Assembly (NCBI GenBank): GCA_963817895.1
Contig: CAWFQB010000014.1
Location: 128,001 to 192,000, forward strand
Origin: an uncultured Chthonomonadaceae bacterium
GTDB lineage: Bacteria; Armatimonadota; Chthonomonadetes; Chthonomonadales; Chthonomonadaceae
Direction: 5' to 3'
DNA length: 64,000 nt
Position 1 is the first letter of the stretch; every line of letters begins with the position of its first letter. The notes beneath the pieces were generated by a model. That model was not told the origin of the DNA, ran no database searches, and saw only the letters and a program-made list of their open reading frames with translations. The position numbers and the translations under genes are program-made. Positions 22,985 through 60,292 of the stretch are shown here, in pieces.

Positions 22985-23024
22985 AAATGGGCAGACCGAA
23001 ACCTGCGTTTCCCTCTGCCCATTT
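22985..23024 (-). terminator. Probable terminator of the RNA ligase operon
   Basis: Stem AAATGGGCAGA / TCTGCCCATTT about 30 nt after the ligase stop, with a U-rich tail on the minus strand. Confidence 0.6.
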
Positions 23025-23960
23025 GATTCATCAAGCGCGAATTTTATTTTGTGGCTATACGTCGTGGGTGTCCCGCTCCGCGCTTTTGGAGAACAGGTAG
23101 GCATCGCCGATGTACTTCATGGCGACGCGGCCCACTTTGGGATCAACCCGCTCAATGATGGGCTTGACGACAACGCCCTCGCGTATGTGCGCGTCATCAA
23201 GGGTGGTTCCGCCCTCCGACAGCAGTTTGACGGTGTTCAGGTCGTACTCTCCCCGGAATAGAACCGGCACGGTTTCCACGCCATGACGGGCGCAGGCTTG
23301 CAGGAAATCATCCGGGTTCAGGTACTTGCCATCCACGAGCAGATCGAACGCGCGAAATCCCAGTTTGCCTTTGTGTCCATAATGCAAGTCCTGAATTTTG
23401 GAGCCGAATACTTCCCCGAAGAGAACCACCTGCCGATGTTCCGCGCCGAACTCTTCGAGCAGAGCGCGTACCGGCGTGAGAGACAGCGGAAACCAATAGG
23501 TGCTGCTTGCCCATTGCGCCTGTTCTTCGGGCGGCTTGCGGCGAACGCTCATGGAACCGGCCATCCATTCGCCTTCTATTAGGCTTACCCTACAGTTGCT
23601 TCCATGGATTTTCTCGGTAACAACGACTTCCTCGCCCGCCGTCAGCACATCGGGGAAGTTGCGCAGGTTTTCGACATCCGTGTATTCCACGAGCAGCGGA
23701 TGCGGCGGCAGAGCGTCGCCCGCAGTCGGCTTAAGCGGCGGAATGTACTTGGTAATCCCGTAGTAGGCTTTTACATCCTCGCCCTCCGTCCATTCGGGAT
23801 TTTCCACATCAATCAGAACGCCGAAAGAGGGTTCGCCGCGCAATCGGGCGCAGCGAACTCGTCCGGCAGGCGGTTCGGGCGCGTCGGGGCCGGTACGAAC
23901 GGAAAGATATTTGGTAATGTTCCATTTGTCGGCGTGTTCGAGCGGAATCAGGCTGTCAAT

Positions 23961-25024
23961 AGATACTCCGACAAATAGTATATAGGCTGTTTTGAGGCAG
24001 GCTAGCGCTCAGGTGGAGCAGACACACTCCACCCGTCGAAAACCCTTTTTCCGCGTTTACTTTTCCCGGCTTACGCGCCTTGCGGCTCGCGTGTCAGCGC
24101 GATCAATTGCACCAGACCCACCACACAGAAGCAAGTGCGACGGAACAATCCCGTCGCCAGACGATATTCATCACGCACCATCCGAAACGCTTTGACGCGC
24201 CGGATACTATGTTCGACACGCACACGCCCTGAGGAAAAGGCGCGGTTCTCTTCTTTCTGCACAGCGCTCAACGCGCCTCCGCGTGGCTTCTTGTGCGGCA
24301 CTTCGCTGTGGGGTAAGCCTTGATAGGCCAGATCGCCTTTGACCGTCGCATGGGGAAACTGCTTGGCAACCGTACTCTGCTCATGCACTTTCTTGTCCGA
24401 CTTCGGGCCGCGATAGCCCGCATCCACATCAAGAATGTCGCCATTGCGGTTGGTGATGACCTCGGTCTTGAGCGTGTGGTCTTTCTTCTTGCCCGAGTAG
24501 AAGGCGCGTTGCTTGGGTTCAATCGAGGGACGCGGAACCGGCGTCTCGAAACTATCCACAATCACCTGATCCACCTCCTCGGGCTTCCAGGAGGGTTCTT
24601 TCTTGGTCCAGCGTTTCTCCGCTTCCCAGCGGTTGGCCGGACACACGTCTTTGAGGACGCCGACAATCTCATGGAAGGTGTTCTCCGCCACATCGGCGCT
24701 GACGCCAAACAGCATGCCCACCACAGAGAAGGCGACGTTGTGGCGCAGGTACAGCAGCGTCAGCAACACTTCCTGGTAGGGCTTGAGCAGGCGTTTGCGG
24801 CCGCCTCCCACCTTGCGGCGGCGCGTGGGCTTGTTGGCCTGTTCTTGTTGGCGACGGCGCTCGATTTCGGGAAGCGCTGCCAGGAAGAGTTCAGCTAAGG
24901 CGGCGTGGGGTAGTCCGAAGAGCGAACGGACTTTGTTTTCGGGATAGCGGCCAAGTTCGTGAAGGTTCATACGTCTATTCTACCCGCGCCAAGAATAAAT
25001 CCAAACTTATTTGTCGGAGTATCT
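23961..25024 (-). mobile_element. Insertion sequence, IS5 family (ISL2-like), 1064 bp
   Basis: Perfect 17-bp TIR AGATACTCCGACAAATA (23961-23977) / TATTTGTCGGAGTATCT (25008-25024). AAT is duplicated at 23958-23960 and 25025-25027. Confidence 0.92.
24071..24970 (-). CDS. DDE transposase (HTH_Tnp_4 + DDE_Tnp_4 type)
   Basis: 299 aa, intact. Motifs GGGRK..L, LLTLLYLRH, IVDSFE.PV.RP, YSGKKK.HT.K, GDLAYQG and RVRVEH.I...K.FR. Confidence 0.92.
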   Translation of the reverse strand: MNLHELGRYPENKVRSLFGLPHAALAELFLAALPEIERRRQQEQANKPTRRRKVGGGRKRLLKPYQEVLLTLLYLRHNVAFSVVGMLFGVSADVAENTFHEIVGVLKDVCPANRWEAEKRWTKKEPSWKPEEVDQVIVDSFETPVPRPSIEPKQRAFYSGKKKDHTLKTEVITNRNGDILDVDAGYRGPKSDKKVHEQSTVAKQFPHATVKGDLAYQGLPHSEVPHKKPRGGALSAVQKEENRAFSSGRVRVEHSIRRVKAFRMVRDEYRLATGLFRRTCFCVVGLVQLIALTREPQGA

Positions 25025-25206
25025 AATGGGTATGTACGTGACCAGACTGCCCGCCTGATATTTGCCTTTGGGAATCACGCATTGCCAGCCCTTGATCTGG
25101 CACAATTCCAGCGCGTCGGCGTTGCCATGCGGCATCACGCGCTCAATCTTGCACACTTCTACAATGCACTCGGACATAGGTATACCCTCCAAAAATTACG
25201 TTGCTA

Positions 25207-25285
25207 TGAGAGTGGAGGGAATCGAACCCCCTTGCTTTCGCCGCAGGGTTACAGCCTGCTGCCCGACCATTTAGGCTTCACTCTC
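25207..25285 (-). tRNA. tRNA-Tyr(GTA), atypical
   Basis: GAGAGTG AA GCCT AAATGGTC GGGC A GCAGG CTGTAAC CCTGC GGCGAAAGCAA GGGGG TTCGATT CCCTC CACTCTC A. Has G1-C72, A73 and a short variable hairpin, but A instead of U at position 8. CCA is not encoded. Confidence 0.85.
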
Positions 25286-25300
25286 AGGAATCAGTTTAGC

Positions 25301-25327
25301 CGCGAATGAACGCGAATGAACGCGAAT
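25301..25327. repeat. Short 10-bp tandem repeat between the tRNAs
   Basis: CGCGAATGAA CGCGAATGAA CGCGAAT. Confidence 0.8.
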
Positions 25328-25403
25328 ATAGAATACAAATAGCAGAATAGCGACCGTGAACGGACTTGTCCCTGATACCTAACACCAAACACCTGATCTT
25401 TTA

Positions 25404-25478
25404 TGGAAGCGGTCGGAATCGAACCGACAACACGTACTGTGCGAAAGTACATCGCTGACCCTTAGGACATGCGCCCCC
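25404..25478 (-). tRNA. tRNA-Ala(CGC)-like, atypical
   Basis: GGGGGCG CA TGTCCTAAGGGTCAGCG A TGTACT TTCGCAC AGTACG TGTT GTCGG TTCGATT CCGAC CGCTTCC A. Has the G3-U70 Ala identity pair and A73, but C at position 8, a weak D-stem and an anticodon stem extendable to 6 bp. CCA is not encoded. Confidence 0.75.
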
Positions 25479-25505
25479 ATGTTTTTGTTGAAAATTCTCC
25501 ACATT

Positions 25506-25547
25506 AAAAACGAACTTCAGCCCGGTCTGAGGTTCCAGACCGGGCTG
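25506..25547 (-). terminator. Attenuator terminator hairpin upstream of the tRNAs
   Basis: Perfect 12-bp stem CAGCCCGGTCTG-GAACCT-CAGACCGGGCTG followed by AAGTTCGTTTTT on the minus strand. The U-tract is displaced by 7 nt. Confidence 0.7.
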
Positions 25548-25579
25548 CGCATTGTTGTCAGGGAATGAACAAATTTGCG

Positions 25580-25699
25580 TTAGTGTGGTTCTGGAAGGCG
25601 CGACGGAACAGTATACCCGGCGTAGGCATAGACTGCGGCCTGTGTATACGTGAGGCCGGTGCAGTCGGAATATGCGGTTGTTGCCGAATTGGTGTTCAT
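25580..25699 (-). CDS. Putative leader peptide (39 aa; 43 aa from the in-frame ATG at 25711)
   Basis: MNTNSATTAYSDCTGLTYTQAAVYAYAGYTVPSRLPEPH*, with 5 Tyr, 6 Ala and 7 Thr. It ends 32 nt before the terminator stem. No clear SD sequence. Below the ORF-track length cutoff. Confidence 0.6.
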   Translation of the reverse strand: MNTNSATTAYSDCTGLTYTQAAVYAYAGYTVPSRLPEPH

Positions 25700-25946
25700 G
25701 CGTTTAGTCATTTGAAAAAAGATTGTTGACGGAGCGCTATCAGGGTAATGTTAGCGATTTGCGCGCTTTCAGGCGTTCCACACGCATTGACAGCGGCGTT
25801 GTGGCGAAAGTTGCGCCGCAGGAAAAAACATTTGGCGACTTTTCCTGCCTCTCCCGCTTCAGATAACCGATAATACTACGAGAACCTTGTCGCATACGTG
25901 TCCACAAAGAACGTTGAAGGCGTGGGGGCTGGTGAAGGGAAAGTCC

Positions 25947-59896: not shown

Positions 59897-60238
59897 ATGA
59901 CACTGATTTTACACGCGCTGACAGGCAGAACAGAACAGGTTTCAGCAAAGGCAGGCGTCAGGTTGGATACGCCAAAATTGAACATCAAAGAGCCGACTGC
60001 GGGTTCGCGCTGCGCGTATTGCGGCAGCGCGGAACTGTCGAGCCTGCCGATTTATGCGGTCGGGCTGCGGCCTTGCGTACCGCGGCGATTCGCGGACGAT
60101 GTAATGTGCCGTCGCTGCGGGCGCATGGGGCCGCCGGTTTATACGGGTAATGCAACGCAAAACCGCCTGCGAAGGACACGCAGACGGCGGAGAGAAGCGG
60201 CGTACAAAATCCGCTTAAATCGGAGTGACAGGATTTGA
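59897..60238 (+). CDS. Small hypothetical protein with two CxxC pairs (possible zinc ribbon)
   Basis: CAYC...CRRC in the only sizeable gap. The 3' end overlaps tRNA-Pro on the opposite strand, so the extent is doubtful. Confidence 0.4.
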   Translation: MTLILHALTGRTEQVSAKAGVRLDTPKLNIKEPTAGSRCAYCGSAELSSLPIYAVGLRPCVPRRFADDVMCRRCGRMGPPVYTGNATQNRLRRTRRRRREAAYKIRLNRSDRI

Positions 60239-60292
60239 ACCTGCGACCTCATCGTCCCAAACGACGCGCGCTACCAACTGCGCCACACTCCG
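60220..60292 (-). tRNA. tRNA-Pro(TGG)
   Basis: CGGAGTG TG GCGC AGTTGGTA GCGC G CGTCG TTTGGGA CGATG AGGTC GCAGG TTCAAAT CCTGT CACTCCG A. Canonical cloverleaf; CCA is not encoded. Confidence 0.97.

Follow-up and report, generated by a model that had tools for sequence, protein, structure and literature searches.

How individual bacterial tRNA genes are regulated is poorly known, and the stress arrays studied so far use protein regulators. Could a translated leader take that role? The question is raised by a locus in a 64,000-nucleotide stretch of DNA from an uncultured Chthonomonadaceae bacterium (contig CAWFQB010000014.1, positions 128,001 to 192,000; hereafter the window), where a short leader open reading frame (ORF) and a terminator-like hairpin precede genes for tRNA-Ala(CGC), tRNA-Tyr(GTA) and an RNA ligase of the Rnl5 (DRB0094) type. 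A sequence-only reading had joined these five parts into a minimal tRNA replace-and-repair operon, and all five lie where it had placed them. Judged by sequence comparison, the unit is real, combines parts of known kinds in a new way and is partly broken in the window genome (G000). We consider it fairly probable that the locus represents, in reduced form, the 5′ head of a tRNA array that is stress-inducible and under a leader-peptide transcription attenuator, and in our best reading this attenuator would be tuned to tRNA-Tyr and tRNA-Ala supply by ribosome stalling. Coordinates refer to the 64-kb window, the features of the unit are on its minus strand, and G002 denotes a relative of the same genus, in which the intact unit spans 2.2 kb.

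A leader ORF and hairpin precede two tRNA genes and a ligase

Along the minus strand, a 39-codon ORF is followed by the hairpin, tRNA-Ala(CGC), tRNA-Tyr(GTA), a GGAGGG site and the ligase start. The leader ORF (25580..25699; ORF scan) has a further in-frame ATG at 25711, and its stop lies 35 nt upstream of the core of an intrinsic-terminator hairpin (25547-25518). Hairpin search and folding place this hairpin and its U-rich tail at 25501..25547. The stem, first described as 12 bp, counts 13 pairs, 9 of them G-C (−26.4 kcal/mol), and the U-tract is imperfect, beginning about 7 nt past the stem. Leader codons 35-38 (25587..25596) form a candidate antiterminator strand, complementary to the 5′ arm and loop of the terminator (9 pairs, one bulge). 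ARAGORN identifies the atypical tRNA-Ala(CGC) at 25403..25479 and tRNA-Tyr(GTA), also matched by Rfam, at 25206..25286; we place the two genes at 25403..25478 and 25207..25285. The ligase is led by a ribosome-binding site, GGAGGG (25185..25190), and its ATG at 25177 lies 29-30 nt downstream of tRNA-Tyr, in agreement with the gap of about 30 nt proposed earlier. Searched at E values of up to 1, Rfam assigned no family to leader or hairpin, and a hairpin pattern run over the genome gave no further copy of the window hairpin type.

The unit is the cut-down head of a long tRNA array

Matches to TIGR02306, the family model for this ligase, occur in 50 of 401 genomes of the phylum, and the ligase itself is patchy, being present in 9 of 61 related genomes. 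We examined 53 ligase loci. A quick tree of 47 rows (6 truncated, intein-bearing or frameshifted rows left out; three top rows, probably in the wrong frame, ignored) separates with an SH-aLRT of 99 a subclade made up of 21 Armatimonadota loci and the window locus, with at least 61% identity to the G002 protein. Co-oriented tRNAs lie within 1.5 kb at 16 of these 22 loci, and tRNA-Tyr(GTA) is among them in 16 of 16. In the canonical Armatimonadota clade (26-31% identity), tRNAs are nearby at 3 of 25 loci, 2 of the 25 having almost no upstream DNA. Arrays also surround three loci titled Planctomycetota (59-61% identity), and four loci at 45-53% lie outside arrays. The sequence-only reading had named the absence of tRNAs and leaders upstream of homologous ligases as the outcome that would speak against it; instead, tRNAs were found at these 16 loci and a leader ORF with a terminator at 18 of 22. 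The strict detector returned the leader at 3 of 21 subclade loci, and the other 14 came from a looser script and reading by eye.

Relatives with the same ligase or leader carry arrays of 12-28 tRNAs. Arrays in five further genomes open with the same leader-hairpin, followed for example by Trp, Ala, His, Tyr, Pro and Glu tRNAs, and in G053 and G058 the ligase comes after Tyr-Pro-Glu. Because the window unit shares this head and the tRNA order, it can be read as an array head from which most tRNAs have been deleted. It has the redundant tRNAs and patchy distribution of the L-arrays described in other bacteria and, with two tRNAs only, lacks their long co-oriented run. Thus, on comparative grounds, the unit is what remains of the 5′ head of a long, stress-type Armatimonadota tRNA array rather than a free-standing invention, which overturns the earlier view of a self-standing minimal module; most relatives keep the ligase inside arrays, often with RtcB. 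A Pfam scan of 48 chosen neighbour ORFs found RtcB at 8 loci, a T4 Rnl1-like ligase at 2, PcfJ at 3, Thg1 at 1 and EF-Tu at 1.

The main array of the window genome, on contig C4, has 16 contiguous tRNAs and a displaced Ser, with neither Ala nor Tyr. tRNA-Tyr is likewise missing from the main arrays of G002 and G001, and hence from those of all three genomes of the genus. The C4 array (G000:C4:223181-230400, L107) has its own leader-terminator switch, and its tRNA-Phe is followed by an integrase-bearing element, on the far side of which lie a partial Phe copy and tRNA-Ser. In another genome (L081:539-3328, G227), a group II intron-type reverse transcriptase splits the rtcB gene that lies within the tRNA array.

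The leader-terminator layout recurs in unrelated sequence families

G002 keeps the leader start, stop and frame (with one 3-nt indel) as well as the hairpin, and the leader dN/dS between the two genomes is 0.34 on 39 codons. Searching 401 genomes with a pattern derived from four hairpins gave 9 sites in 8 genomes, against 3 matches in 2 genomes for the reversed control. Four of the five sites outside the design head a tRNA array or rtcB-like gene with a leader stop 31-32 nt upstream, and over all matches the stop lies 31-35 nt before the hairpin in 8 of 9. Of 30 loci returned by a covariance model, 11 were examined: 5 stand at the start of arrays, 5 are ordinary terminators and 1 precedes an operon called rtcB-like by resemblance. 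An apparent leader and hairpin in G001 were rejected, as the hairpin overlaps the promoter motif described below and the ORF overlaps the upstream gene.

The two mutually exclusive helices are both conserved. Over 9 sequences, 88.9% of antiterminator cells are paired, with 2 compensatory pairs, and 97.4% of terminator cells. This was also true of 12 Capsulimonadaceae loci of unrelated sequence (antiterminator 90.8%, 3 compensatory pairs; terminator 95.0%), and a third unrelated leader-switch family heads the main arrays of the window genus. The layout is therefore common to three unrelated families, with compensatory changes in two. Because related sequences can beat the shuffle controls of the covariation tool, we place weight on the three unrelated families. 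In constrained folding with the ribosome absent or at the last Tyr codon, the antiterminator was favoured until the terminator 3′ arm was nearly complete; with the ribosome at the leader stop, it was never favoured. In both G000 and G002, 16 nt separate the end of the last Tyr codon from the antiterminator, such that a ribosome stalled at this codon would leave the antiterminator free. The hairpin lies 40 nt before the first tRNA in the window and about 15 nt before it in G053 and G058, leaving no room for a promoter between them. The subclade survey, the pattern and covariance matches and the pairing thus bear out the earlier suggestion of a conserved, attenuator-like leader and hairpin before the tRNAs and ligase: the ORF ends shortly before a terminator, mutually exclusive pairing is conserved, and the control codons are suitably placed.

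The leader is rich in the amino acids of its two tRNAs

Beyond the sequence-only reading, we found that the leader is rich in the amino acids carried by the tRNAs behind it. Of the 39 codons of the window leader, 5 encode Tyr and 6 Ala; the G002 leader has 6 Tyr and 10 Ala. Tyr makes up 2.7% of the proteome, compared with 5 of 38 residues in the window leader (binomial p 0.0035) and 6 of 39 in G002. Among 9,265 genome ORFs of 35-45 codons, 18 have at least 5 Tyr; the combination of 5 Tyr with 6 Ala is attained by 2, one of which is the window leader. The 28 other leaders have 0-4 Tyr each (41 in 1,784 residues, maximum 5.9%; Fisher p 0.002), and the leader of the C4 main array has no Tyr and 3 Ala in 58. 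Swapping leaders against tRNA sets gave p values of 0.002 (G000), 0.0001 (G002, not independent) and 0.0012 (the two complementary arrays of G053, from another family); with label permutation these were 0.005, 0.006 and 0.001, respectively. Such natural pairs, the module versus the main array and the two G053 arrays, serve as built-in controls. All 5 window Tyr are kept in G002, two of them through synonymous TAT/TAC swaps, which is not significant alone because the leaders are 65% residue-identical. Tyr, which has one isoacceptor, is the better candidate signal than Ala.

The tRNA genes are atypical and the ligase gene is interrupted

Both tRNA genes score low and are lost at an ARAGORN threshold of 110. 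In Rfam, tRNA-Tyr matches the tRNA family (50.4 bits) and tRNA-Ala matches solely as a tmRNA end (21.1 bits); we rejected a tmRNA, as the match covers only the Ala-type acceptor and T arm. tRNA-Ala(CGC) keeps G3-U70 and A73 and has two extra bases past the acceptor strand, one D-stem mismatch and no encoded CCA. This odd form (extra bases, D-stem mismatch) recurs in G019 and G050. tRNA-Tyr(GTA), read by the general rules of tRNA identity, has G1-C72, A73 and a long variable arm, with A8/C21 instead of U8/A21 and again no encoded CCA. Compared with G002, tRNA-Ala is identical at 73 of 76 positions (the anticodon there being TGC) and tRNA-Tyr at 76 of 79, with a compensatory change in the anticodon stem, versus 60 of 118 for the tRNA spacer. 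By these comparisons, the array-type tRNAs are odd yet not decayed. They are also redundant, as housekeeping genes for tRNA-Tyr(GTA) and tRNA-Ala(CGC) lie on contigs C10 and C1.

Other atypical tRNAs occur in this genome. At G000:C11:90528-90599 (L108), a tRNA with a CUA (amber) anticodon, called Pyl by ARAGORN, follows a short ORF-like stretch and a terminator-like hairpin and is a possible suppressor. Atypical tRNA-like clusters lie at G000:C3:373423-373740 and C1:603042-603212; in these, Glu, Cys and Met share an unusual D-arm, and the anticodon loops of Val and of a tRNA with an ACA anticodon are odd.

The ligase gene is split by a 1,064-bp insertion sequence (IS; 23961..25024) with 17-bp inverted ends, a 3-bp target duplication and a 299-aa DDE_Tnp_4 transposase (24071-24970). 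It separates codons 1-51, the start of the OB module (25025..25177; TIGR02306 E 5e-11, PF21189), from the remaining 300 codons, whose nucleotidyltransferase motifs are intact (23055..23960; TIGR02306 E 8.9e-37, PF09414). The IS must be recent, since 12 further genome copies are 99.6-100% identical to it. Separately, the halves match TIGR02306 at 42.1 and 126.7 bits, and the intact G002 orthologue, in which the OB module and the adenylyltransferase domain lie in one ORF, scores 191.6 bits, above the curated cut-off of 151.15. The ligase of the earlier reading is thus upheld as an Rnl5/DRB0094-type enzyme, but its gene is broken here and intact in G002. Motifs I, III, IIIa, IV and V are invariant in the ligase alignment and align to NgrRnl, and the ligase has a full-length match to structure 5COT. 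With a dN/dS of 0.077 relative to G002 (dS about 1.07), the gene was, from its substitution pattern, under strong selection before the IS broke it. Because the gene is split, the window copy is probably inactive; the tRNA half alone is likely to work.

The biochemistry of the family bears on this break. Rnl5 ligases seal nicks with 3′-OH and 5′-phosphate ends (PMC5397189), and the N-terminal module of DraRnl is required for overall nick sealing (PMC1807946), so the IS hits the part that DraRnl needs. DraRnl has been tied to radiation survival with a proposed role in DNA repair and, in the available text, no evidence for RNA repair, and the physiological functions of Rnl5 ligases are described as uncharted (PMC5397189). 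A role for Rnl5 in tRNA repair is possible but somewhat doubtful. If it holds, the subclade would gain its first RNA substrate, and tRNA arrays are in any case a setting in which to look for one. No close ligase was found on viral contigs. In the ligases at L018:7554-9680 (G001) and L036, an in-frame insertion beside motif I has intein-like ends and homing-endonuclease-like sequence, as read by eye.

A conserved promoter-like motif and possible partners in trans

A promoter-like motif, GCAACT-17-GTCA (25783..25814), stands upstream of the leader. It is present upstream of 13 of 13 family-f1 loci examined, with or without a leader, and of 0 of 6 family-f3 loci (0.006 expected per 420 nt; the motif was defined after some of these loci were seen). 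Four relatives keep it without any leader. We tentatively read it as an alternative sigma promoter of the extracytoplasmic function (ECF) type; no sigma-70 promoter was found for the window unit, and family-f3 loci, like those of Capsulimonadaceae, have sigma-70-like boxes. This motif speaks against the earlier idea of control without a protein regulator. The motif with spacing 15 is enriched genome-wide (12 versus about 3). It also occurs before rpoB-like, tRNA-Gln(TTG) and nucleotidyltransferase-like regions (G000:C3:347978, C11:11574, C14:258457), and before a TROVE/Ro60 gene in several frames (G000:C1:1544571-1546600, L106). The gap of 300 nt in front of this gene might contain a Y RNA, but none was detected by Rfam at E up to 0.1.

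No Pnkp is encoded at the locus, as had been noted, but a bacterial Pnkp gene lies elsewhere in the genome (G000:C2:301831-304622) and might supply end healing in trans. It is spread over several frames, from assembly errors or decay, and frameshifts seem common among the genes of this assembly. A search for RtcB in the window genome, which is 81% complete, gave none.

A model for attenuation and its alternatives

From the arrangement of the parts we infer leader translation, a switch, co-transcription, a trigger and a ligase role on tRNA, as follows. Transcription would start near 25780. A ribosome reaching the leader stop would cover the antiterminator, allowing the terminator to form and ending transcription 40 nt before tRNA-Ala. 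A ribosome lagging at Tyr (and Ala) codons, all at least 16 nt before the antiterminator, would let the latter pair with the terminator 5′ arm; the opened terminator would then permit read-through into tRNA-Ala, tRNA-Tyr and the Rnl5 ligase, which would be made together. The unit would in this way supply two tRNA types absent from the main array, and a leader matched to its tRNAs would amount to ribosome-read feedback on tRNA gene transcription. Extra tRNA would do little to relieve starvation for an amino acid, so the trigger is more likely to be a loss of tRNA or inhibition of the ribosome. There is precedent for such loss: tRNA-Tyr is degraded by retron-Eco7 and rescued by phage tRNA-Tyr (PMC11555353). 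More broadly, each stress array or fragment might carry a demand sensor, its leader rewritten to match the tRNAs it gates, with tRNA loss, such as nuclease cleavage of tRNA-Tyr, answered by a divergent replacement tRNA and by Rnl5 resealing of healed breaks; we offer this extension tentatively and regard it as rather less than probable. No listed RNA sequencing run contained the window stretch, the best share being 0.12.

Several observations weigh against an attenuator tuned in this way. The terminator wins at full length and at equilibrium, so the switch must be kinetic, and no Shine-Dalgarno site was seen on the leader ORF. Four subclade loci (G001, G013, G015 and G024) have no leader, and a metagenome pattern scan gave 3 relevant loci out of 120. 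Taken alone, the antiterminator pairing of the window locus is weak and not above background: at least 6 such pairs were found at 29 of 67 background ORF-plus-terminator sites in a genome scan that missed the window site, and 321 of 460 random windows were as strong in a duplex-energy control, which did not single out the site. That genome scan, a generic one for leader-terminator switches, was too noisy for a regulon to be drawn from it. Most full arrays are not significant singly in leader/tRNA matching, the Tyr enrichment rests on one lineage of two genomes, and nothing found links Rnl5 to tRNA repair.

These points gain meaning beside the other explanations. In a general translation-stress attenuator of the wblC/whiB7 or PA5471.1 type, any slowing of the ribosome would open the terminator, and the Tyr/Ala richness would be low-complexity drift. 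The same layout does stand before rtcB-like genes or the ligase alone, without tRNAs (G054, G053:C106, G117, G155, G179), and Anabaena L-arrays are responsive to many antibiotics that target the ribosome (PMC8421152). In five reduced Capsulimonadaceae modules that include tRNA-Tyr, the leaders contain just 2 Tyr (a sixth, in G386, has 3 in 54), and the window leader contains no GCG codon although tRNA-Ala(CGC) reads GCG. Yet the swap tests hold in the independent G053 family, and the 5 Tyr persist between genomes at a ligase dS of about 1.07, bearing in mind the residue identity noted above; we judge this explanation unlikely. If the hairpin were a plain terminator, or an RNA-processing or stability element, all regulation would fall to the alternative-sigma promoter, and the ORF would encode a small protein or be incidental. 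This reading would suit a promoter motif more constant than the leader in family f1 (13/13), the equilibrium fold and the missing Shine-Dalgarno site. It is nevertheless improbable, since a plain terminator 15-40 nt before the tRNAs would silence them, and the complementary strand is fixed in place with compensatory changes in unrelated families. The IS, the low tRNA scores, the imperfect U-tract and the patchy distribution would also fit an array that was acquired horizontally and now survives as a decaying, functionless remnant. That reading is the least credible to us, and highly improbable: the tRNAs are 96% identical to those of G002 versus about 50% for the spacer, the ligase was under selection, the odd tRNA-Ala form is common to several families, and the IS is identical to other copies and hence recent. 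We therefore favour the attenuator-controlled array head, with the Tyr codons as its candidate signal.

Relation to known systems

The trpL, hisL, pheL and ilv-type attenuators place a control-codon-rich leader upstream of an antiterminator/terminator pair and control amino-acid biosynthesis, whereas the controlled products of the window unit would be the tRNAs themselves and the ligase. An ilvB leader attenuator is described in PMC11550727. The uORF of whiB7/wblC also has translation favouring an intrinsic terminator and disrupted translation favouring an antiterminator, and the WblC regulon includes six tRNA genes (PMC11550727, PMC7157823). In contrast to the window attenuator, which would act directly on a tRNA transcript, wblC reaches tRNA genes through a transcription factor.

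L-arrays and the Anabaena trn operon share with the unit supernumerary, non-periodic, patchy tRNA genes, rtcB neighbours and a proposed role in translation stress (PMC8421152, PMC10272220). The Anabaena trn operon is controlled by a DNA-binding repressor, TrcR, unlike the window type, with its leader peptide and terminator, Rnl5 ligase and two-tRNA fragment. In the available text, the string ‘attenuat’ is absent from both papers and ‘leader’ from PMC8421152. In Pseudomonas aeruginosa, PA5471.1 precedes armZ (PA5471, RtcB-like) and PA5470, and shares with the unit a leader peptide, proposed attenuation by ribosome stalling and an RNA-ligase-like gene (PMC12057347). ArmZ is a MexZ anti-repressor and, as far as the available portion of that paper describes, comes without tRNA genes or an amino-acid-matched leader; the window unit has tRNAs. 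DraRnl (DR_B0094) and NgrRnl share with the window ligase the OB module, nucleotidyltransferase domain and conserved motifs (PMC5397189, PMC1807946), but its subclade, 26-31% identical to the canonical Armatimonadota clade, is distinct and sits in tRNA arrays. In the open-access literature, supplements aside, we found no paper that describes tRNA genes controlled by a leader peptide or an Rnl5 ligase within a tRNA array. The earlier statement that an Rnl5-plus-tRNA operon under peptide attenuation is undescribed holds in that literature, although the RtcB-like armZ shows that a ligase-like gene under a leader peptide is known.

Other features of the locus

The terminator expected near 23000 was found as a terminator-like hairpin at the unit end (22989..23020; hairpin search), and in G002 a different hairpin occupies the same place. 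Next to the locus lie genes for a PAS histidine kinase and a PAS/GGDEF/HD-type protein, and the locus has neither rtcB nor a protein regulator. The tRNA spacer holds a copy of a short interspersed repeat (25296..25327) with 154 genome matches at up to 2 mismatches; inverted pairs are frequent among these roughly 154 copies. An ordinary tRNA-Pro(TGG) gene lies elsewhere in the window, at 60220-60292.

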